Positions 746 to 63,297 of a DNA stretch of 64,000 nucleotides are shown here, piece by piece. The notes beneath the pieces are model-generated. The model had not been told where the DNA came from. It searched no databases and was given only the letters and a program-made list of their open reading frames with translations. This DNA comes from Thermoanaerobaculia bacterium (lineage in GTDB: Bacteria > Acidobacteriota > Thermoanaerobaculia > UBA5066 > Gp7-AA6): NCBI GenBank assembly GCA_038239305.1, contig JBBSEW010000003.1, positions 51,022-115,021 of the forward strand, read 5' to 3'. How positions within the stretch are numbered: the first letter of the stretch is position 1; each line of letters begins with the position of its first letter. Both the position numbers and the translations under genes were made by a program.

Positions 746-802
746 AATCGGGTGATCGGGTGATCGGGTGATCGGGTGATCGGGCGAACGATCGGGTGAT
801 CC
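746..802. repeat. 8-bp tandem array (GATCGGGT-type, about 7 units)
   Basis: Direct reading: aatcgggt gatcgggt x3 gatcgggc .. gatcgggt gatcc. GATC recurs every 8 nt. Confidence 0.9.
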
Positions 803-835
803 GAAGATGTACGGGGACCTGAAGGATCTACTTTT

Positions 836-877
836 CGTTTCCCGTTTCCCGTTTCCCGTTTCCCGTTTCCCGTTTCA
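836..877. repeat. 7-bp tandem array (CGTTTCC x5 plus CGTTTCA)
   Basis: Direct reading; perfect heptad phasing. It is followed at 881..892 by GATCACCCGATT, the exact inverted copy of 746..757. Confidence 0.95.
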
Positions 878-11412: not shown

Positions 11413-11439
11413 TGGTGGGCGCTCGATAAGAAGCGATCG

Positions 11440-11490
11440 GTCAGTGGATCGTCAGTGGATCCGAGGATCCGAGGATCCGTGGATCAGTGG
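11440..11490. repeat. Tandem array of GGATC-ending units (GTCAGTGGATC x2, CGAGGATC x2, CGTGGATC)
   Basis: Direct reading. The array overlaps the stop codon (11484..11486) of the secreted-protein gene. Confidence 0.85.
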
Positions 11491-16944: not shown

Positions 16945-17615
16945 CGTCCGCCTCCGAGTGCGAGCGTCTGGTCGGGAGTTTCGAAGTCCCGCGCGTCGTT
17001 CGACGCGAGAATCACGGCGCCCTCTCTTCGGCTCGCCTCGACGAGGCGCGAAGCGATCTCCCGTCCGGAAGCGTCCAGGCCGTTCATCGGCTCGTCGAGC
17101 AGGAGGATCGGCGAATCGAAGAGCGTCGCGAGGGCGAGCCGGAGCCGCTGCTTCATTCCGGTCGAAAAGGCTCCGACGGCCTTCTCGGCGGCGTCGGAGA
17201 GCCCGACGTCGGCGAGCCGGGATCGGATTTCGTCGGGATGCGCGGGCCGCCCGCCAGCTCGCCGGAAGAAGGAGAGATTCTCGAGCGCGGACAGGTCCTC
17301 GTAGAACGCGAGGTCGGGTCCCGCCCACCCGATCGCGTGGCGGCGCATGTCGCCCGCCAGCTCGCGCGTGGCCTCGCCCTCGCCCCCGCCCTCGCCCCCG
17401 CCCTGGCTTTCCTCCTGCGGGCGAGTCCGGATCCGCAGAGTTCCCGCATCGGCCCGCAGGAGACCCGCGAGGATCTTCAGGAGCGTCGTCTTGCCGCTGC
17501 CGTTCTCCCCGGAAACGGCGACGAGACCGCGGTCGACCGTGAGCGACACGCCGGAGAAGATGCGCCGCCCGCCCCAGGACTTGGCGAGCCCCTCGGCCGC
17601 GAGCGTGGTTCGCAT
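16941..17615 (-). CDS. ccmA: Heme ABC exporter ATP-binding protein CcmA
   Basis: ATG at 17615 (MRTTLAAEGL...). Walker A GENGSGKTT, signature FSTGMKQR, Walker B LLLDEP. It contains an acidic/Gly insertion, QGGGEGGGEGE. Confidence 0.85.
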   Translation of the reverse strand: MRTTLAAEGLAKSWGGRRIFSGVSLTVDRGLVAVSGENGSGKTTLLKILAGLLRADAGTLRIRTRPQEESQGGGEGGGEGEATRELAGDMRRHAIGWAGPDLAFYEDLSALENLSFFRRAGGRPAHPDEIRSRLADVGLSDAAEKAVGAFSTGMKQRLRLALATLFDSPILLLDEPMNGLDASGREIASRLVEASRREGAVILASNDARDFETPDQTLALGGGR

Positions 17616-23736: not shown

Positions 23737-23746
23737 GGAGCCCGGC

Positions 23747-23790
23747 GGGAAACGGAAAACGGGAAACGGGAAACGACGACGGAAAACGGG
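23747..23790. repeat. 7-bp tandem array (GGGAAAC/GGAAAAC, reverse complement of the CGTTTCC family)
   Basis: Direct reading. It fills the 67-nt spacer between the subunit IV and subunit III genes. Confidence 0.9.
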
Positions 23791-23803
23791 AGCCTAGACA
23801 CTG

Positions 23804-26228: not shown

Positions 26229-26290
26229 CCGTTTCGTCCGGTCCTTCGCCCTCCGATACGATCGCGACCGTCTCGACAACCCGATTTCCA

Positions 26291-26349
26291 GATGACCAGA
26301 TGACGAGATCGATCGCGAGATCACGAAATCATGAGATCGCGAGATCGCC
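26291..26349. repeat. 8-bp tandem array (GATGACCA, GATGACGA, GATCGATC fragment, GATCGCGA, GATCACGA, AATCATGA, GATCGCGA)
   Basis: Direct reading. Same family as 2488..2523, 48923..48986 and 59359..59398. Confidence 0.9.
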
Positions 26350-28546: not shown

Positions 28547-28573
28547 GGCCGCGATTCTATCGCGGGCGATCCG

Positions 28574-28594
28574 CTGTCCGCTGTCCGCTGTCCG
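28574..28594. repeat. 7-bp tandem array (CTGTCCG x3)
   Basis: Direct reading. It lies in the 51-nt spacer between the MFS gene stop and the zinc-ribbon gene start. Confidence 0.9.
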
Positions 28595-28597
28595 CTC

Positions 28598-36506: not shown

Positions 36507-36537
36507 TGGCGTGCAGTTGTCAGTGGGCGGCCTTCCG

Positions 36538-36594
36538 CTGTCCGCTGTCAGTTCTGAGTTCTGAGTTCTGAGGTTGGGTTTGGTTTTTGGGTTT
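36538..36594. repeat. Heptad-phased tract (CTGTCCG, CTGTCAG, TTCTGAG x3, GTTGGGT, TTGGTTT, TTGGGTT)
   Basis: Direct reading: eight consecutive 7-nt units. Confidence 0.9.
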
Positions 36595-36681
36595 CGAATT
36601 ATTCTCGCGGGGCTTCGAGCCAGGCACCGAACCGGATACGGGAGAAGGGATAACGGAGTACGGCCCGGCCGCCTGCGAGCC

Positions 36682-36737
36682 GAGAGCGGAGAGCTGAGAG
36701 CTGAGAGCTGAGAGCTGAGAGCTGATAGCTGATAGCT
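36682..36737. repeat. 7-bp tandem array (GAGAGCG, GAGAGCT x5, GATAGCT x2)
   Basis: Direct reading. It ends 7 nt before the ATG of the amidohydrolase gene. Confidence 0.95.
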
Positions 36738-40216: not shown

Positions 40217-40256
40217 GAGCGGCCTCGCGGCCGCTCGCGGGATTCGGTTATCGGTC

Positions 40257-40337
40257 AGCTATCAGGTATCAGCTATCAGCCACTCGTTTCCCGTTTCCCG
40301 TTTCCCCGGGCTTCGTTCTCTCGTTCTCTCGTTCTCT
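40257..40337. repeat. Three adjacent arrays: AGCTATC/AGGTATC x3, CGTTTCC x3, CGTTCTCT x3
   Basis: Direct reading (40257..40277, 40285..40305, 40314..40337). Together they fill the convergent spacer between mutL and 40342..40977. Confidence 0.9.
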
Positions 40338-48922: not shown

Positions 48923-48986
48923 GATCTCGCGATCTCGCGATCTCATGATCTCGCGATCGATCGTTCGATCGTGGGATCGGGTGATC
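48923..48986. repeat. 8-bp tandem array with GATC in phase (GATCTCGC x2, GATCTCAT, GATCTCGC, GATCGATC, GTTCGATC, GTGGGATC, GGGTGATC)
   Basis: Direct reading. This is the reverse-complement orientation of the 2488..2523 array. Confidence 0.95.
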
Positions 48987-49018
48987 GGGAACTTCGATCG
49001 CGGAATGCGGATGCCGGG

Positions 49019-52122: not shown

Positions 52123-53667
52123 CTATCTCTCCGACTCGATTGCGCGTGCGATGGCGGGATCGAGCCCGGGGAATTTCACCAGCCAGTCCCGGCGCTCCTC
52201 CCGGAGCTTTTCGACGAGCTCCCGGTACTCGGAGTCGGAGTATCGCGTTCCCGGCGTGTACTTCTCGAGGTCTACTCCCGGGACGTCGGTCGGGACCTCG
52301 TAGCCCCAGTCAGGATCGGTATCCCAGCGGATGCCCTCTTTGGCAATCTGCTTCATGATCTCCGTGGACACGCGGATCGTGATTTTCTCTCCGGCTCTGT
52401 CCGCGCGCGCCCCGACCGACCCCGTGTTGAGGATGTAGGCCTGCATGTCGGGGTTTTCGCGCAGGATCTGCAGGAGCCGGTTGCCCTCGTCGGCCTCCGG
52501 GCCCACGATGAACGGATTCGTTCCGACCTCGCGTTTGGCCTGCCCGGCTTTCGTCGGGTCTCCGGCGGACGTTTCGATCGACTCGCCCAGCATGAAGTAC
52601 GCCGCGGCCTGCTCGGGCGTGAGCCGCGCGCAGACCGGGACGATGTCGTTGCGCCGGGTGATGAAGACGATCTTGTTCGCCTTCGGGAGGTCGATTCCGT
52701 CGCTCGTGCCGCGGATGAAACGCCGCAGCACGACTCCCCGTCCGTTCGACGTGATCGACGTGTCGAGGAAATCCACCTTCCCGGAATCATCCACCCGGAT
52801 GTTCTCGTACGTCGCCGACGCGTGCGTCGCGGCGCCCCAGAGAACGGTCTGCGACGGTTCCAGGCCCTCGGTCTTGATGTAGAAGCCGTCCTCGGTGCCG
52901 AACGCCCGGCCCCCCCGGGTGAGAAGAACCACGTCGTCCTGCTTGATGATCGCGGCCTCCGGGGGCTGAAGCCCGTGGTCGTGGAGCGTCAGGGTCGTCT
53001 TGCCCGTCCCCGACAGGCCGAAGAGAAGGAACCCGACGTCCGAGAGCGTCCCGTCGGGACCCGCGACGCGAAGGATCTTCGAGCCGGCGTGCAGCCCCAG
53101 CCCTCCGCGCCTCTTGATCCAGTACATCGCCTGGCGGAGCATCGACTTCTTGGCCTCGCCGGGGTAATCGCTGCCGAGGATGTAGGTGTATCCCTGCGTG
53201 ACGTCGCAGAAGATCAGTCGCTCCGGCCAGTCGGGCACGTACACCGAAACGAAATCAGGCTCGTGCGTCGAGTCCGACTCGAACAGCATGTTGTGCCACA
53301 TGTACGCGATGCGCGCGTATTCGACGGGGACGAAGAGCCGGCAGCGGAGAGTCGCTTCCGGGTTGTCGCCCATGCGGCGGTCCACCTGAACGAGGTCCAT
53401 CCCGAGGAGCGCTTCCTGGACTTTCCGAACCGTCTCCTCCGCTTTCGCCCGGTCGATCGGCTGCTGCATCACGCCGACCGGAACGTCCGACACCACGTAG
53501 GTGTTCTTCGCGGACCGGTTCTTGACGCGCGTCGCGTAGACCGGGGAGCCGTACTCCGTCGTTTTCTCTCCCGAGCGGGCGAGAGCGCGCAGCTCGTCTC
53601 CCGGCAGATCCTTGCGGATCGTTCGGGCGCGGATCGTGCGGGGCGACGCGGTCTCGGTGGTGCTCAT
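52123..53667 (-). CDS. pckA: Phosphoenolpyruvate carboxykinase (ATP)
   Basis: 514 aa. Kinase-1a motif GLSGTGKTTL and the PEPCK-ATP blocks FITRRNDIVP and NTGSVG. Confidence 0.9.
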   Translation of the reverse strand: MSTTETASPRTIRARTIRKDLPGDELRALARSGEKTTEYGSPVYATRVKNRSAKNTYVVSDVPVGVMQQPIDRAKAEETVRKVQEALLGMDLVQVDRRMGDNPEATLRCRLFVPVEYARIAYMWHNMLFESDSTHEPDFVSVYVPDWPERLIFCDVTQGYTYILGSDYPGEAKKSMLRQAMYWIKRRGGLGLHAGSKILRVAGPDGTLSDVGFLLFGLSGTGKTTLTLHDHGLQPPEAAIIKQDDVVLLTRGGRAFGTEDGFYIKTEGLEPSQTVLWGAATHASATYENIRVDDSGKVDFLDTSITSNGRGVVLRRFIRGTSDGIDLPKANKIVFITRRNDIVPVCARLTPEQAAAYFMLGESIETSAGDPTKAGQAKREVGTNPFIVGPEADEGNRLLQILRENPDMQAYILNTGSVGARADRAGEKITIRVSTEIMKQIAKEGIRWDTDPDWGYEVPTDVPGVDLEKYTPGTRYSDSEYRELVEKLREERRDWLVKFPGLDPAIARAIESER

Positions 53668-53720
53668 AAAAGCTCTCCGTGGCCCTCCTGCGGGGAGAAC
53701 GTTATATCAGGCGTCCGCTC

Positions 53721-54290
53721 TCACATCTCGGCACGGATGACGTAGCGCAGCGGTCCGCCGGGAGTGATGGCGTCGAACGGATAGCAGGTCACGAGCGTCA
53801 GCGCATACCCCTCCGTCCGTTCGAGCGCCCGCGTGTTCGCACGGTCGACGATGCCGGTTTCGGAAACGCGATACACGTGACGCCGGCCGTCGGGCGTTTC
53901 GAGCACCACGGAATCTCCCGGGACGAGGCCTCGGAGGCAGGCGAACTGAGTGTCGCGGTGAGCGGACAGCACGCAGTTGCCGGGCTCGCCGGGCGAGGCG
54001 CTCCCGTCGAGATGGCCGGGCCCGAATGCCAGGGTCCGGCCCGACGCGCCGGACAGCACGATGAAGTCCGCCCCCGCCCCCGCCGACGGGATCGAGAGCC
54101 GGGCGACGGGCCACGTGTCCGCGGAAGGCCAGGGCTTGACCCCGCGCTCGCCCGCCCGCGTGCGGGCCCAGGCCCTGTGGAGGAGCACCTGCGCCAGGCG
54201 CGCTTTTCCGTAAATCCCGAGGCCGTGACCGAAGAGGGCGATTCCCAGTCCGAGCGCGGCGGCTGCCACGACGGGGACCCGGCGCTTCAT
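53721..54290 (-). CDS. Sortase of the Gram-negative 'dedicated sortase system' type
   Basis: The ATG at 54290 overlaps the target-gene stop (ATGA). N-terminal TM, catalytic His (LSAHRD), TLVTC active-site motif and a C-terminal Arg (RYVIRAE). Confidence 0.8.
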   Translation of the reverse strand: MKRRVPVVAAAALGLGIALFGHGLGIYGKARLAQVLLHRAWARTRAGERGVKPWPSADTWPVARLSIPSAGAGADFIVLSGASGRTLAFGPGHLDGSASPGEPGNCVLSAHRDTQFACLRGLVPGDSVVLETPDGRRHVYRVSETGIVDRANTRALERTEGYALTLVTCYPFDAITPGGPLRYVIRAEM

Positions 54291-56488
54291 GACCGGGCTC
54301 CGGTTCCGTTGGGAAAGGAGTAGCTCGAGCGGAAGCGGCCGTGCGCGCGAGCGTGGACGAGGAAGAGGAGGAGCCCGAGACCGATGAGCCCCGAGCCGAG
54401 GAGCAGGCAGAGCGTTCCCGGCGTGGCGGTCCGGGGCATCTCGCCGAAGACGTGCTCGGCGCTCCAGCCGTCCGGCAGGTTCACGGGGATCGGCCGTGCC
54501 ACGCATGCCTGACTCGTCTGGCCTTGCGGGCCGGCTGCCGGGGTGACATCGACGGCGACGAGACTCGTGAATTCCGAAACGAGGTGGTGCGCCAGGGCCA
54601 CGGGGAGAACCTGCGCGCGCACGGCTTCCCGCGTCGGTCCGTCGGAGCCCGCCGTGAGCGCGTCCATCAACGCCGCGATCTTCCGGCTGGCCCAGAGCCG
54701 GTGGACTCCCGAATCGGGCGATCCGGCCGAGAACATCAGGCGCGTGGACCAGGGCCCGTCGGCCCTCCGGCCTCCGATCGTCACGGCGCCTCGCGAGGAA
54801 GCCAGGCGGACCGCGAGGATGAGGGGCTCGCCCGCATACACGTCCGGAAGCTTTGCCGGCCACATCTCCGCGGACGGGTCGTCGAACTGGACCTCGAGAT
54901 TCGTGAGCACAGGCGACTCGAGCTTCCGGAAGAGGTCCGCCATCTTTGTCTCGACCTCGGCCGGGCTCGCTATGTACGTGAAGGTGCCGCGCCCGAACTC
55001 GGCGGCCTTTGTCATGAAGTGGGAATTCGGCGCCGAGCCGAGACCGACGGTGAACAGGCGGCTGTTGCCGAGGTGCTCGCGGATGAATCGGAAGAGGGCT
55101 TCTTCGTTCGATACGCCCCCGTCGGTCATGAACAGGACCTGCCGGACGTTTTCTTCGCCGGACGGGCTCTCGAGCGCGGCCGCGAGCGCGGGCAGCATCT
55201 CCGTGCCGCCCTGCGCCTCGAGCCGGGAGACCCAACGGACGGCCGCGTCGATCTCGGCCGGCAGCGCGCGCCGGCAGTCGGGAAAGAGCCGCCGCGTGAC
55301 GCTGTTGAACTCGATGACGTTGAAACGGTCCTCCGGGCCGAGTCTCTTCAGCGCGAGAGTCAGGGCTCGCCGGGCACCGTCGATCGACGTGCCGTGCATG
55401 GACCCCGACGTGTCGATGACGAAGACCGTCTCGCGCGGGAGCCGGACTTCGGGAGCCGCTTCGGCCGCCGGCGGAACGACCATCATGAGAGCGAACGCTT
55501 CGCCGGTGAGCTCCTGCGTGAAGACGGCCGCCTTCGGTTCGCGCCCGAGGTCGAGAGACCACGACACCTCGAGATCGCGATCCGCGAACACCGTCTCGTC
55601 CGAAAGGGTGACCGCGTAGCGCGATTCCTGGAGAAGCGCGGTGTGGAGAGCATGCGTCCCGCTCGAGACGTCCCTCAGCGGAAATCCGGCGTCGAGATCC
55701 AGCGTGACGTGGATCGCGTTGACCTTTCCGTCGCTCGCATCCGGACGAAGAACGGGCGGCGTGATCCGGGAAGCGTCCGGGACCGCGTCGGTGTCGGGGG
55801 ACCAGCCCGTTCCGGTTCGAGCCTTCCCGTCCGTCGCGAGCGTCGATCCCGGCACGTACCGGGGGCCGACCACGGTCGGGAAGCGGAGGCGAAAACGGCC
55901 CTGGTCGTACCGCAGTGCCTGCTGATAGACGACGTCGACGCGGACGTCCTCGTCCGGCCCGATGCCCGAGACCGACATGGTGAACACGTTCGGCCGCTCC
56001 TGCTCGAGCAGCGACGCCTTGCGGCCTTCCGACCGGGCCTGTTCGTAGACCTGCCTGGCGTCCTGCCGCTCCCGGATCTCGGCCTCGATGATCCGTCCCC
56101 CGATCGTCATCCGGAGCTCGTCCACGGCCGCGTCCTCGGGAAGCGGAAACACGTAGATGCCTTCGACACACGTTCCCGTGGCGTTGTGGAAACGCTGCGA
56201 GACTTCTCCTCGCGCGATCATGCCGGTCACCCGGATGCGGACGTCGGTTTCCACCGAAGGCGCAGGCAGGAAAGCGCCCGGCGAAGACGTCTTCCAGAGG
56301 AGCGAGGCCTGCGTGACCTCGTTCATGCGGACCGGCGTCGAGAGGACCTGTCCGCGGGCATGCGACGCCGAGAGCGCGCCGAGCAGGAGGAGGAGAACCA
56401 CCTGCAGGATCCTCCAGGCGAGTGTGGCGGTGGCGGTGGCGGTGGCGGTGGCGGTGGCGGCTAGGGGCTCCAGGCGAGTGCGGTTCAT
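54287..56488 (-). CDS. Sortase target protein with VIT and von Willebrand factor A domains and a C-terminal sorting signal
   Basis: Signal peptide; VIT block (VSQRFHNATGTCVEGIYVFPLPEDAAVDELRM); vWA MIDAS motif (VIDTSGSMHG...GGTEM...MTDG). The C-terminus is MPRTATPG, then a 20-aa hydrophobic segment, then HARAHGR. Confidence 0.8.
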   Translation of the reverse strand: MNRTRLEPLAATATATATATATLAWRILQVVLLLLLGALSASHARGQVLSTPVRMNEVTQASLLWKTSSPGAFLPAPSVETDVRIRVTGMIARGEVSQRFHNATGTCVEGIYVFPLPEDAAVDELRMTIGGRIIEAEIRERQDARQVYEQARSEGRKASLLEQERPNVFTMSVSGIGPDEDVRVDVVYQQALRYDQGRFRLRFPTVVGPRYVPGSTLATDGKARTGTGWSPDTDAVPDASRITPPVLRPDASDGKVNAIHVTLDLDAGFPLRDVSSGTHALHTALLQESRYAVTLSDETVFADRDLEVSWSLDLGREPKAAVFTQELTGEAFALMMVVPPAAEAAPEVRLPRETVFVIDTSGSMHGTSIDGARRALTLALKRLGPEDRFNVIEFNSVTRRLFPDCRRALPAEIDAAVRWVSRLEAQGGTEMLPALAAALESPSGEENVRQVLFMTDGGVSNEEALFRFIREHLGNSRLFTVGLGSAPNSHFMTKAAEFGRGTFTYIASPAEVETKMADLFRKLESPVLTNLEVQFDDPSAEMWPAKLPDVYAGEPLILAVRLASSRGAVTIGGRRADGPWSTRLMFSAGSPDSGVHRLWASRKIAALMDALTAGSDGPTREAVRAQVLPVALAHHLVSEFTSLVAVDVTPAAGPQGQTSQACVARPIPVNLPDGWSAEHVFGEMPRTATPGTLCLLLGSGLIGLGLLLFLVHARAHGRFRSSYSFPNGTGARS

Positions 56489-56567
56489 GGCGGTTTCCCT
56501 CCGAGGCCCATTCGAGCGCGCGCGGGAAGCACGGGCGTGGAGGCGGCGGGGAGATTCGGCGGCTGTT

Positions 56568-56585
56568 TGTGGCGAAAATGTGGCG
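56568..56585. promoter_or_regulatory. Direct repeat TGTGGCG-AAAA-TGTGGCG (11-bp register), candidate OmpR-family operator
   Basis: Direct reading. It lies in the 136-bp divergent region between the target/sortase operon and the RR/HK operon, 40 nt upstream of the RR ATG. Confidence 0.3.
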
Positions 56586-56624
56586 GCGCTTTCCGCCGCC
56601 CGGAAAGCACGGGAGAATGCGCGC

Positions 56625-57335
56625 ATGCGATCCGCCACGCCGGAAACGGTTGCGTTCGTCGAGGATGAAGCCACGATCCGGGAGACCGTGTCCTTCGCCC
56701 TGAAGCGCGAGGGTTATCGCGTGCGTCTCTTTTCCGACGGTCGGGAGGCGTGGGAGTCCTTCGAGAAGGAGCTCCCCGGTCTCGCCATCCTGGACATCGT
56801 GCTGCCGCGCATGGACGGCCTCGAGCTCTGCCGGAAGCTGCGCGCGCGATCCGAGGCTCTCCCCATCATCTTCCTGAGCTCTCGCGACGAGGAGCTCGAC
56901 CGCGTCCTCGGACTGGAGCTCGGCGCGGACGACTATCTCTGCAAGCCGTTCTCGATGCGGGAGCTCGTGACGCGCGTGAAGGTGCTCTTTCGCCGCGCCG
57001 CTCTGGCGCGATCGAGCACCCTGCCGGCGCCGGAGAAGATGCTCTCGGAAGGGGCGCTCGAGCTCGACCTGGACCGATACACGGCAAAGTGGGAAGGGTC
57101 GCTCGTGCCTCTGACCGTCACGGAGTTCCTCCTTCTGCTGGCTCTCGCGAAGCATCCCGGGCACGTCAAGACGCGGCGCCAGCTCATGGAGGAGGCGTAT
57201 CCCCACGACGCGTTCGTGAGCGAGCGGACGATCGACAGCCACGTGAAGCGGCTGCGGCGCAAGTTCGAGGAGCGCGAGACGGAGTTCTCGAAGATCGAGA
57301 CGGTCCACGGCCTCGGCTACCGCTACGGGGAATAG
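56625..57335 (+). CDS. OmpR/PhoB-family response regulator (receiver plus winged-helix)
   Basis: ATG at 56625. Receiver Asp in LAILDIVLP, and a C-terminal trans_reg_C domain (TVTEFLLLLALAKHPGHVKTRRQL...VHGLGYRY). Confidence 0.9.
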   Translation: MRSATPETVAFVEDEATIRETVSFALKREGYRVRLFSDGREAWESFEKELPGLAILDIVLPRMDGLELCRKLRARSEALPIIFLSSRDEELDRVLGLELGADDYLCKPFSMRELVTRVKVLFRRAALARSSTLPAPEKMLSEGALELDLDRYTAKWEGSLVPLTVTEFLLLLALAKHPGHVKTRRQLMEEAYPHDAFVSERTIDSHVKRLRRKFEERETEFSKIETVHGLGYRYGE

Positions 57336-57406
57336 GGGGGCGCGGATTGAAAGGGGTCGGGGCGGATCCTTCGCCGGTGGCGGCGGGCTCGAAGAAGTCC
57401 CGGCGC

Positions 57407-59029
57407 ATGCCCGCCGGGCTTTCTGTCCGCCTTCTCGCCTTCAACCTGCTTCTCGTCTTCCTCCCCGCGGCGGGTTTTCTCTATCTCGACACCTACGAGA
57501 AGCAGCTCCTCGAGGCCCAGGAACGGGCGATGGTCCAGCAGGGGCGCGTCCTGTCGGCGGCGCTGTCGGAGCGGGGCGCGCCGTCCGCGTCGGCCGTAGG
57601 CCGGATCCTGGCGCTTCTGAACCGGCGGATCGAATCGCGGATTCGCGTGGTCGACGCGGAGGGGCGGGTCCTCGGGGACTCGAGCCGCCTCGGCCCGCGT
57701 TCCGAGAAGGGGCCGGAGAAGGAGAAGGAGAAGGAGAAGGAGAAGGAGACAGGGAGGGAGAAGGCCATGGGGGAGCCGGCAGGGCGCAGCCGCTTTCTGT
57801 ACCGGACCGGGGCCGCTCTCTACTCTGTCGCGTCTGTCGCGAAGCGGATCGCGCTCCCCCCGGAGCCGCCTGCGGCCGCGCCGAGCGAGCCCACGGACGC
57901 GGAGGGCCGGCTCTCGGGGCGGGAGGTGCGGGCGGCGCTCGCCGGCCGATATGGAACGACAGTCCGCACGTCCGCGGGAGGCCAGCGCTCGGTCACGCTC
58001 TACAGCGCGATTCCGATCATGAGCGGCGGGCGTCCGACGGGCGCCGTGCTCGTGTCCCAGTCGACCTATCGGATCCTCCAGGATCTTTACTCGATCCGGC
58101 TCGGGGTCTTCCAGGTATGCCTCGCCTCGGTCGTCGTCGCCGTCCTGCTGTCGTTCCTCGCCTCGGCGACCATCGCCCGTCCGCTGCGCCGCCTGCGGGA
58201 CGAGTCCGCGGCAATCCTAGACCGGCGGGGAAGGCTCCGCGGGAACTTCCGGCGCTCGGAGAAAGCGGACGAGATCGGCGACCTTTCGCGAGCGCTGCAC
58301 GACCTGACGAGACGGCTCGAGGAGTACCAGGGCTTCCTGGAAACCTTCGCGGCAGACGTGTCGCACGAGTTCAAGAACCCGCTCGCTTCGATTCGGACCG
58401 CCGCCGAGATGATGGCCGAGGCGGAGAATCCCGCAGATCGCCGGCGGTTTCTCGCGATGGCCCAGGGTGAAGTGCGCCGCATGGAGCGGCTCCTGTCCGA
58501 CCTGAAGGAAATGACGCGGATCGATGCGCGCCTCGAATCGGAAGGCGAGGAGACGGTGTCCCTGACCGCCCTGCTGGAGCGTCTGTGCGAGGGCTATCGC
58601 CTGCGCGGGACGAGAACCCGCTTTCTCTTCGAGTCGCCGGCGGAGGCGGTGGGAGTCCAGGCGTCGGAGGAGAGGCTGGCCCAGGTGTTCGAGAACCTGC
58701 TCGACAACGCCGCGAGCTTCTCGCCGGACGAGGGAGAGGTGAGCATCCGGGTCTTGCGGGAGCAGGGAGCGGCCACCGTGACCGTGTCCGACCGAGGTCC
58801 CGGGATCCCGCCGGAACACTTCCATCGGATCTTCGACCGCTTCTTCACGTGGAGACCGGCCGAGCGAGCCCGTTCCCGCGAACATTCCGGCCTCGGCCTC
58901 GCGATCGTCAAGACAATCGTGGAGGGCTATGGCGGAAGCGTCGAAGCGGGGAATCGGGAAGGAGCGGGAGCCGTGTTCACCGTCCGCATCCCGGCATCGC
59001 GGACGGGGGTGTTCCGGAAGAACGCATAG
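57407..59029 (+). CDS. Sensor histidine kinase (two TMs, periplasmic sensor, HAMP, HisKA, HATPase_c)
   Basis: H-box VSHEFKNPL, N-box LLDNAASFS, G-boxes DRGPGI and GLGLAIV. The TTG at 57347 is the alternative start. Confidence 0.85.
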   Translation: MPAGLSVRLLAFNLLLVFLPAAGFLYLDTYEKQLLEAQERAMVQQGRVLSAALSERGAPSASAVGRILALLNRRIESRIRVVDAEGRVLGDSSRLGPRSEKGPEKEKEKEKEKETGREKAMGEPAGRSRFLYRTGAALYSVASVAKRIALPPEPPAAAPSEPTDAEGRLSGREVRAALAGRYGTTVRTSAGGQRSVTLYSAIPIMSGGRPTGAVLVSQSTYRILQDLYSIRLGVFQVCLASVVVAVLLSFLASATIARPLRRLRDESAAILDRRGRLRGNFRRSEKADEIGDLSRALHDLTRRLEEYQGFLETFAADVSHEFKNPLASIRTAAEMMAEAENPADRRRFLAMAQGEVRRMERLLSDLKEMTRIDARLESEGEETVSLTALLERLCEGYRLRGTRTRFLFESPAEAVGVQASEERLAQVFENLLDNAASFSPDEGEVSIRVLREQGAATVTVSDRGPGIPPEHFHRIFDRFFTWRPAERARSREHSGLGLAIVKTIVEGYGGSVEAGNREGAGAVFTVRIPASRTGVFRKNA

Positions 59030-59358
59030 CTGTCCGCTCTCGGCTCAAAAACGGGGGATTCCAAGCGATTCGGTTTCTCGTTTCCCCATTGTGAGGTCGT
59101 CTCGCGCCGAGACGCCCGGGGCCGTCCGCCCTCCACTCCGTCGACACGGCGCGGCTCTGGATGCGTGAGAAGAGAGATGGCAGCCGCGCCTCCGCGAAAT
59201 CGGCGCAGGAGCAGCGCGGCGAGGCCAACGGATGGGTGTGCGCCGATTTCGAGGGTCTCCTCCGGGAGGGCTACCGGCCCCGGGCTCGCGTTTGCTGAAA
59301 GAGTGAGACGGGCAAGTCTCTCGTACTTGTTCCAAGAGACGCACTCCGCGGAAGACCG

Positions 59359-59398
59359 GATCTCGCGATCTCATGATCTCGCGATCGATCGAACTATC
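59359..59398. repeat. 8-bp tandem array (GATCTCGC, GATCTCAT, GATCTCGC, GATCGATC, GAACTATC)
   Basis: Direct reading. The reverse complement of 59359..59398 matches 2476..2515 with one mismatch over 40 nt. Confidence 0.95.
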
Positions 59399-59680
59399 GA
59401 GTTGAGGAGAATCTGGAGGCGCAATAGACCCCGGCTCGCCCGTAACGAAAGTCTCCCTGGAGCCCGCCGCCGGCGGAGCCTCCCTTCCGAGGCCATGAGT
59501 GAGGGAGCACACCGAACTCGAACTATCGCCTCTCGGCGAGTGCGACCGAACGACGAGCGGCGGCCCGGTTCTCCTCGAGCGGCAAGGCCGACGCGTGCCT
59601 CGGGAGGGAGGCGTAGTCGGCGGCGGGCGGATCGGCGGCGCTCACGCCCTTTCCTCGATATCCCGGCATGGTTCGCAAGA

Positions 59681-63198: not shown

Positions 63199-63297
63199 GT
63201 TTTTAGTTTTTAGTTTTTAGTTTTTAGTTTTGAATCTTGGGTTCTGGGTCTTGGGTCTTGGGTCTTGGGTTTTGAATTCCGGGTTTTCGAGTCTTGG
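63199..63297. repeat. Heptad-phased tract of about 14 units (GTTTTTA x4, GTTTTGA, ATCTTGG, GTTCTGG, GTCTTGG x3, ...)
   Basis: Direct reading. The first 35 nt are strikingly AT-rich for this genome. It occupies the divergent spacer between queA and the MBL gene. Confidence 0.95.

Follow-up and report, generated by a model that had tools for sequence, protein, structure and literature searches.

A class GN sortase, its VIT-vWA target, and an adjoining two-component system in a Thermoanaerobaculia bacterium

We analyzed a 64,000-nucleotide (64-kb) stretch of DNA, referred to here as the window, from a Thermoanaerobaculia bacterium (GenBank assembly GCA_038239305.1, contig JBBSEW010000003.1). We found that the window contains a four-gene cassette that encodes a sortase, a target protein with a VIT domain and a von Willebrand factor type A (vWA) domain, an OmpR-type response regulator, and a histidine kinase (Table 1). 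An earlier note on this DNA had described these genes as a complete copy of the known dedicated sortase system, and we confirmed all four at the same positions. The sortase and the target belong to the families that define that system. In contrast, the regulator and the kinase do not, and the note had overlooked PdsO, another component of the system.

The sortase, its target, and the layout of the cassette

The target gene is upstream of the sortase gene in one operon. The TGA of the target overlaps the ATG of the sortase (TCATGA), as expected from the translational coupling that the earlier note had described. A spacer of 136 bp separates the target gene from the regulator and kinase genes, both of which are on the opposite strand. 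That is, the two-component pair is divergent from the sortase operon, again as previously described. An open reading frame of 1195 amino acids (aa) at 53721-57308 on the minus strand was rejected as a high-GC read-through artefact in which the sortase frame is fused to non-coding frames. Searches of the whole window against Rfam, at gathering thresholds, gave no matches.

Table 1. Features of the sortase cassette and the spacer between its two divergent gene pairs. Positions are those of the window. TRF, Tandem Repeats Finder.
Feature	Position	Strand	Description
Class GN sortase	53721..54290	-	189 aa; TIGR03784, Pfam Sortase, PDB and model matches
Sortase target	54287..56488	-	733 aa; TIGR03788, Pfam VIT and VWA_3
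Sorting signal of the target, aa 684-733	54290..54439	-	MPRTAT, hydrophobic helix PGTLCLLLGSGLIGLGLLLFLV, basic tail
(GTGGCG)x6 perfect repeat	56424..56460	.	TRF: 6.2 copies, 100% match
Direct repeat, presumed regulator site	56569..56584	-	GCCAC-ATTTTC-GCCAC, 11-bp period
Imperfect palindrome	56589..56609	.	GCTTTCCG-N5-CGGAAAGC; between the direct repeat and the regulator start codon
-10-like hexamer GAGAAT	56613..56618	+	6 nt before the regulator ATG
OmpR-family response regulator	56625..57335	+	236 aa; receiver and winged-helix domains
Sensor histidine kinase	57407..59029	+	540 aa; ChvG-type sensor, HisKA, HATPase_c
(GAGAAG)~10 repeat	57704..57764	.	TRF: 10.2 copies, 78% match

The sortase is a member of the class GN family. 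It scored 195.1 bits against the NCBIfam model TIGR03784 (curated cutoff, 158.25) in an alignment covering positions 2-174 of the 174 in the model, and 96.2 bits against the Pfam Sortase domain. The catalytic residues named in the earlier note are present at His111 (in SAHRD), Cys169 (in TLVTC), and Arg182. All three are invariant across 40 homologues, and all three align with the catalytic residues of the class D sortase of Bacillus anthracis (PDB 2LN7). This enzyme was the best match in a sequence search of the PDB (E value, 1.2e-13); a class C sortase (8T28) was second. An AlphaFold model of the window sortase (mean confidence score pLDDT, 85.6) has a long N-terminal membrane helix (residues ~4-45) followed by the sortase beta-barrel, and a Foldseek search with this model also gave 2LN7 as the best match (37% identity; target-normalised TM-score, 0.70). 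Among solved structures, the class D enzyme is thus the nearest in sequence as well as in fold. The next-best NCBIfam match was 'class D sortase, LPxTATN-specific', although the sortase missed the class D cutoffs (82-89 bits versus 140-165).

The substrate motif of the B. anthracis enzyme also ends in TA, as here, and not in TG. That enzyme joins LPNTA substrates to diaminopimelate cross-bridges. It differs from the window sortase in that its host is monoderm and in that it works during sporulation. In addition, the class GN sortases have an invariant segment of their own, P53-W54-x-x-A57-D58-T59-x-P61 (residues 53-61; window 54108-54134), which follows the membrane helix and precedes the barrel's first strand.

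The target is a member of TIGR03788, with a score of 732.6 bits (cutoff, 551.65) over model positions 1-626 of 629. It contains the VIT domain (Pfam VIT, 114.7 bits; aa 80-188) and the vWA domain (Pfam VWA_3, 90.6 bits; aa 354-503) that the earlier note had described, and the metal ion-dependent adhesion site (MIDAS) motif DxSxS is present in the latter as D359-x-S361-x-S363. The sorting signal was also borne out. The signal peptide that had been claimed was judged by eye only, and the N-terminus looks like one.

The sorting motif MPRTAT is not the canonical LPXTG. The corresponding motif is MPSTATPG in most of the related proteins from Acidobacteriota and LP[QKA]TAT in those from Proteobacteria. 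We found no other convincing tripartite sorting signal in the window, and each related locus had one candidate. By Haft's definition, a sorting system is dedicated when a genome has one enzyme and one target (PMC3237569).

The two hexanucleotide repeats listed in Table 1 are within coding sequence. In the signal peptide of the target, (GTGGCG)x6 specifies (Ala-Thr)6 within the n/h region, and (GAGAAG)~10 encodes a run of Glu-Lys in a loop of the periplasmic domain of the kinase, an insertion relative to all of the aligned kinases. Since both repeats are missing from all relatives examined, they have expanded recently, and their length may vary.

Proteins with VIT and vWA domains are not confined to sortase loci. 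A distant homologue from Labilithrix luteola (31% identity) has neither the xPxTAT motif nor an adjoining sortase gene, so members of the wider VIT-vWA family are not all sortase substrates. In the PDB, the sequence matches of the target were the VIT-vWA regions of PARP4 and ITIH4 (9C4F, 6FPY, and 11JF). The eukaryotic VIT-vWA proteins, that is, PARP4 and the inter-alpha-trypsin inhibitor heavy chains, have the two domains in the same order as the target. The C-terminus of the inter-alpha-trypsin inhibitor heavy chains is covalently joined to a glycan. However, the attachment chemistry and the enzymes are unrelated to those of the sortase system, and the likeness is confined to the two domains.

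The two-component system differs from PdsS/PdsR

The proteobacterial dedicated system is represented by SO2192-SO2196 of Shewanella oneidensis, which encode PghK/PdsS, PghR/PdsR, PdsO, the VIT-vWA target, and SrtA (TIGR03785, TIGR03787, TIGR03789, TIGR03788, and TIGR03784, respectively; PMC11580497; bioRxiv 10.1101/2023.05.05.539549). The earlier note had correctly assigned the roles of TIGR03784, TIGR03785, TIGR03787, and TIGR03788. Its placement of the regulator in TIGR03787 and of the kinase in TIGR03785 did not hold.

We compared the regulator and the kinase to the curated models and to controls from proteobacterial cassettes. The regulator has the Pfam domains Response_reg and Trans_reg_C. 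TIGR03787 was its top NCBIfam match, but the score was 247.4 bits versus a cutoff of 335.7. The kinase scored 242.9 bits against TIGR03785 (cutoff, 612.2) and aligned only to model positions 342-703, the transmitter half. Its best NCBIfam match was ChvG (NF058527), at 262.3 bits, which is above its TIGR03785 score and far below the ChvG cutoff of 740. The CreB and CreC models were missed as well (221.5 bits versus 273 for the regulator and 215.2 versus 356 for the kinase). In contrast, control regulators from gamma- and betaproteobacterial cassettes scored 359-386 bits on TIGR03787, a gammaproteobacterial kinase scored 639.9 on TIGR03785, and betaproteobacterial kinases that lack the CBM9 module scored 518-528. 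Because these controls score far higher, the failures of the window proteins on TIGR03787 and TIGR03785 are meaningful.

The top match of the regulator to TIGR03787 is a property of its lineage rather than specific to sortase systems, because an acidobacterial regulator that is linked to creD, with no sortase, scored 244.7 bits on the same model. The window regulator is 81-84% identical to the regulators of syntenic metagenome-assembled genomes (MAGs; see below), 71% identical to that of another acidobacterial sortase locus (L051), and 65% identical to the creD-linked acidobacterial regulator. Identity to the proteobacterial PdsR proteins is 43-49%.

The kinase consists of a transmembrane helix, a ChvG-type periplasmic domain of ~230 aa, a second transmembrane helix, a HAMP-like region, HisKA, and HATPase_c. 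When the sensor region was scanned alone, Pfam Sensor_TM1 was detected at 27.6 bits (cutoff, 26.6), along with a weak signal for Stimulus_sens_1. Pfam CBM9_1 was not found in the window kinase; it was found, at 28.8 bits, in the kinase of a gammaproteobacterial locus (L010). In alignments the window kinase is collinear with PdsS kinases apart from the missing CBM9 insertion, with 26-32% identity.

We also searched for PdsO. With tblastn and two PdsO sequences as queries, we found none in the window or in any of the acidobacterial loci. The queries were from the gammaproteobacterial loci L009 and L010 (149.4 bits on TIGR03789, just under the cutoff of 152.2). The spacer, at 136 bp, is too short to contain a gene.

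Judged from these scores and identities, the two-component system is not the proteobacterial PdsS/PdsR equivalog and is an acidobacterial lineage in the neighborhood of CreBC, ChvGI, and PdsSR. The cassette as a whole is like that of Shewanella in that the sortase and target are in the same equivalog families, the operon has the target ahead of the sortase, a two-component system of the OmpR type is divergent from it, and a single substrate with an xPxTAT motif is encoded beside its sortase. It is unlike that of Shewanella in its acidobacterial host, in the kinase and regulator that fall below the family cutoffs, in the lack of a pdsO gene, in its ChvG-type sensor without the CBM9 module that PghK signaling needs, and in the first residue of the sorting motif, which is Met here (MPRTAT/MPSTAT) and Leu there.

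The resemblance to ChvG-ChvI/ExoS-ChvI of Alphaproteobacteria includes the best NCBIfam match of the kinase, Sensor_TM1, the weak Stimulus_sens_1 signal, and the annotation of related kinases as ChvG by the Joint Genome Institute. It ends at the score far under the cutoff, at the different phylum and regulon, and at the ExoR-type partner, of which none was seen.

Related loci and the repeat in the spacer

We scanned GTDB species representatives with the target protein and obtained 48 loci. Those closest to the window target (63-66% identity) are from MAGs labelled Acidobacteriota or Thermoanaerobaculia. The order glnA, kinase, regulator, (divergent) target, sortase, pckA, citrate synthase, followed by liv-type ABC transporter genes, is shared with at least nine species-level MAGs and with locus L053, and the flanking housekeeping proteins are 82-92% identical between the window and the syntenic MAGs. 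Locus L051 has the same four genes in a different chromosomal context. Based on the synteny and the identity of the flanking proteins, the window is from a Thermoanaerobaculia-type acidobacterium and the cassette has been inherited vertically within this clade. An exact look-up of the window sortase matched only one sequence, a 4.5-kb Logan contig (SRR24807096). The earlier note had suggested that the locus might be an out-of-clade instance of the system. The host is indeed not a proteobacterium, but instances of this kind are not rare, as NCBI already gives acidobacterial homologues the names "class GN sortase" and "marine proteobacterial sortase target protein". In the library that we could search, we found no paper that names both sortase and Thermoanaerobaculia.

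The remaining target loci are from Alpha-, Beta-, and Gammaproteobacteria. In a neighbor-joining tree of target proteins (37 sequences), the Acidobacteriota form one clade that is nested among the proteobacterial sequences, with the window as its deepest branch. This placement suggests that the operon may have entered the acidobacterial lineage once, by an ancient transfer from Proteobacteria. A locus labelled Gemmatimonadota (L026) was considered as evidence of a further phylum and rejected: its target has a C-terminus nearly identical to that of gammaproteobacterial L010, and because the two group tightly in the tree, L026 is probably mis-binned.

The composition of the cassette varies among these groups. 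Some gammaproteobacterial loci have a CBM9 kinase, regulator, PdsO, target, and sortase, and other gammaproteobacterial loci are without PdsO. Two betaproteobacterial loci and the Acidobacteriota have a short kinase and are without PdsO. In Alphaproteobacteria the target and sortase genes are alone within 10 kb. This third, minimal architecture, in which a target-sortase pair lacks both PdsO and an adjoining two-component system of this type within 10 kb, was found in L013-L016, L018-L025, L028, L030-L043, L046, and L048. These loci are mostly alphaproteobacterial (Brucella, Agrobacterium, Novosphingobium, Brevundimonas, Maricaulis, and others); L028 is from Methylococcaceae. An apparent extra gene between target and sortase in the alphaproteobacterial loci was rejected, as the gap is accounted for by longer protein ends.

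We found that close relatives of the two-component system are linked to creD. A search with the sensor half of the kinase gave hundreds of homologues, and we checked the names of the best 120. All of the names given by the source among these 120 were Acidobacteriota or Thermoanaerobaculia, and many of the proteins were annotated as ChvG-type. We sampled six genomic contexts. Two were linked to sortase (L051, and L053 with the synteny of the window) and four to creD (L050, L054, L055, and L056). In each of the four the regulator-kinase pair is divergent from creD (L050, 4778-8599; L054, 2779-6572; L055, 2777-6575; L056, 2726-6611). The creD product scored 510 bits against the CreD equivalog (cutoff, 275). 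In a tree of kinases the sortase-linked and creD-linked groups are sister clades. No creD gene was found within the 64-kb window. The sortase-target pair fills the slot that is occupied in sister genomes by creD, a marker of cell-wall-stress regulons, and it does so behind the same repeat, as described below. Two other features were seen near creD: L050, L054, and L055 share a small luciferase-like gene and an MFS_3 transporter gene downstream, and L055 has a Gly-zipper_Omp reading frame nearby.

The spacer contains a direct repeat of two GCCAC half-sites. The 17-mer GCCACATTTTCGCCACA (56568-56584, minus strand) had a single match in the window, with 0.09 expected by chance, and the looser pattern GCCAY-N6-GCCAC also had one match, with 0.24 expected. 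The repeat is upstream of both start codons, 80 nt from that of the target and 40 nt from that of the regulator. We found one copy of the looser pattern in the equivalent spacer of each acidobacterial locus examined, whether linked to sortase or to creD, and in that of both betaproteobacterial loci. Its orientation is always sense to the partner gene (target or creD), and its distance is 39-42 nt to the regulator start and 77-84 nt to the partner start (110 nt in L056).

This arrangement is similar to that of the cre/blr tag, TTCACN6TTCAC, which is ~65-80 nt upstream of creD and is bound by activated CreB/BlrA (PMC4689548). The layouts match in having two 5-mers, a CAC core, and an 11-bp period, and the repeat is presumably a tag of the same kind, a candidate binding site of the response regulator. 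More generally, the window system resembles CreBC-CreD/BlrAB of Escherichia coli, Pseudomonas, Aeromonas, and Stenotrophomonas in several ways. The sequences of the kinase and regulator fall in the same neighborhood, the sister acidobacterial systems adjoin a genuine creD, and a 5+6+5 direct repeat with a CAC core is found at a similar distance from the regulated gene. It differs in the scores below the CreB and CreC cutoffs, in the first two bases of each half-site, in its ChvG-type sensor, and in its presumed output, which is the sortase operon and not creD.

Other elements of the spacer are also conserved. At the -10-like hexamer, the sequence AGAATGC is invariant in nine loci. Equivalent hexamers (TACATT, TAGATT, and GAGAAT) are 6-7 nt before the regulator start in L050 and L053-L056, and the betaproteobacterial loci L027 and L045 have TATAGT 6-8 nt before the regulator start codon. 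This spacing suggests that the regulator-kinase transcript may be leaderless or near-leaderless. Sigma-70 consensus promoters were not found in 53400-59600; terminator-like matches in the same region were inside genes and not above the shuffled expectation. The outer four pairs of the palindrome are invariant in nine acidobacterial loci. We considered it as a conserved RNA hairpin and do not claim one, as the inner pairs covary weakly (covariation term, -0.74 kcal/mol).

Outside the cassette, short arrays of 7-8-nt tandem repeats are present in many intergenic regions of the window (747-876, 2409-2522, 11435-11490, 23746-23791, 26288-26348, 28570-28596, 36534-36737, 40255-40337, 48923-48987, 59359-59386, and 63199-63274). 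Several families of repeat unit recur at separate places (GATCGCGA/GATCTCGC, ATCGGGTG/CCGATCAC, CGTTTCC, and TCCGCTG), and further units are CTGAGAG (nine copies), GTTTTTA, and TCTTGGG. A related MAG locus (L029) has 7.6 copies of AGGCGTG at 16980-17032. We take these arrays to resemble the short tandemly repeated repetitive sequences of cyanobacteria.

A possible cell-wall-stress output and its alternatives

We conclude with moderate confidence that this lineage has its own variant of the Gram-negative dedicated sortase cassette, wired to an acidobacterial two-component system like CreBC, ChvGI, and PdsSR, and that the target is induced by stress and attached to peptidoglycan. Cell-wall or envelope stress would activate the kinase, by analogy with CreBC/BlrAB, PghKR, and ChvGI. 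The phosphorylated regulator would bind GCCAC-N6-GCCAC in the shared spacer and turn on both divergent promoters. As in the standard sortase pathway, the target would be exported by Sec and kept in the inner membrane by its C-terminal helix until Cys169 of the sortase cuts after Thr687 (MPRT|AT). It would then be transferred to an amine, most likely that of the meso-diaminopimelate side chain in the stem peptide of lipid II or peptidoglycan. The end product would be a periplasmic protein, stapled to peptidoglycan, with a metal-dependent ligand-binding (MIDAS) domain.

Experiments in relatives bear on the regulatory part of this model. In Shewanella, PghKR (the same system as PdsSR) senses peptidoglycan damage and induces pdsO-target-srtA, creD, blaA, and relV (bioRxiv 10.1101/2023.05.05.539549). 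In S. algae, expression of the sortase operon is raised 126- to 799-fold in a pdsS G547W mutant (PMC11580497). Cell-wall stress activates ChvG-ChvI (PMC9731437). Based on these experiments, the conserved adjacency, and the repeat that resembles the cre tag, we infer that the sortase operon is probably a local output of a two-component system that responds to envelope or cell-wall stress. The statement in the earlier note that the role of the system is unknown is thus partly outdated, as the Shewanella work shows induction of the sortase operon upon peptidoglycan damage.

Several points weigh against this interpretation. We know of no experiment on any class GN sortase. The gammaproteobacterial loci keep one GCCAC half-site but differ in the second half-site or the spacing (10- or 13-bp periods), which limits the claim of a tag to Acidobacteriota and the two betaproteobacterial loci. 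The tag could serve only in autoregulation of the regulator-kinase operon. The input signal of PghK is not directly transferable because its CBM9 module is missing here. Horizontal transfer is drawn from a single neighbor-joining tree of 37 sequences without support values. In Shewanella, deletion of SO2194-SO2196 had no ampicillin phenotype, and the authors of that study call the role of Gram-negative sortases unknown (bioRxiv 10.1101/2023.05.05.539549).

It is possible, although we consider it doubtful, that the target is not anchored to peptidoglycan at all. The sortase might free the target from the inner membrane by hydrolysis, couple it to a lysine in another protein, either a lipoprotein or one in the outer membrane, or polymerize it in the manner of a pilus. 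We know of no acceptor shown for any class GN sortase. A polymerizing (class C) enzyme was the second-best PDB sequence match, and vWA domains are found in the tip adhesins of sortase-built pili. However, the nearest relatives by sequence and fold are class D enzymes, and the cassette has one substrate gene and no second, pilin-like gene. The OmpA-like PdsO of some gammaproteobacterial cassettes could be a partner for the target there, but with PdsO missing here and in the beta-, alpha-, and some of the gammaproteobacterial loci, it cannot serve as the acceptor in every system. Since the nearest characterized enzymes are of class D and PdsO is not universal, we favor diaminopimelate as the acceptor.

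It is unlikely that the kinase and regulator are diverged PdsS and PdsR that have lost the CBM9 module, as some betaproteobacterial homologues have, which is how the earlier note would have them. Both proteins are far below the curated cutoffs, at scores that even the CBM9-less betaproteobacterial kinases and the proteobacterial regulators exceed. The kinase scores higher on ChvG, and the Sensor_TM1 and Stimulus_sens_1 signals are missing from the PdsS sensors that we tested. The top match of the regulator to TIGR03787, which could be taken in favor of divergence from PdsR, is reached at the same level by the creD-linked regulator, and the window regulator is 65-71% identical to those of acidobacterial relatives, well above its identity to PdsR. 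PdsO is also absent. Divergence from PdsS/PdsR would agree with the gene order and divergent arrangement of the beta- and gammaproteobacterial loci, with the similar tag in the betaproteobacterial loci, with the collinearity of the kinase and PdsS outside the CBM9 insertion, and with the CBM9-less PghK homologues that have been reported in Betaproteobacteria.

We find it more improbable still that the two-component system and the sortase operon are mere neighbors, with the repeat serving the regulator-kinase genes only and the sortase operon constitutive or controlled from elsewhere: the same two-component lineage does exist beside creD without a sortase, the tag is nearer to the regulator start than to the target start, and the alphaproteobacterial pairs have no two-component system within 10 kb, but the adjacency is kept in two acidobacterial chromosomal contexts (that of the window and that of L051) as well as in Beta- and Gammaproteobacteria, the tag is sense to the target or creD at a distance similar to that of the cre/blr tag from creD, whose control by CreB is proven (PMC4689548), and the adjoining two-component system of Shewanella mediates induction of the divergent sortase operon.

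Sortases of diderm bacteria have been known from genomes for more than 15 years, and this locus narrows, but does not answer, the question of what they attach their substrates to and why. Our analysis adds the conserved tag and a connection with regulons of the creD type; the placement outside Proteobacteria was already evident in public annotation. The family labels 'marine' and 'proteobacterial' are too narrow. Because the sortase-substrate pair occurs without PdsO and without a CBM9-type sensor, the core mechanism can depend on neither of them. The locus also suggests a hypothesis that can be tested, namely that stress induces the stapling of a vWA protein to peptidoglycan, and it supplies a defined DNA site and a defined regulator for this.

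A broader and more speculative notion, to which we give rather little weight, is that the sortase and VIT-vWA operon and creD are interchangeable outputs of a single, ancient family of two-component systems for cell-wall stress (CreBC/BlrAB, PghKR/PdsSR, and ChvGI-like) that act through a shared xxCAC-N6-xxCAC tag. If so, compatibility of the tag would have made it possible for a sortase operon acquired horizontally from Proteobacteria to be connected directly to a native acidobacterial sensor, and the Gram-negative sortase would be an effector of envelope repair that staples a MIDAS-domain protein onto damaged peptidoglycan.

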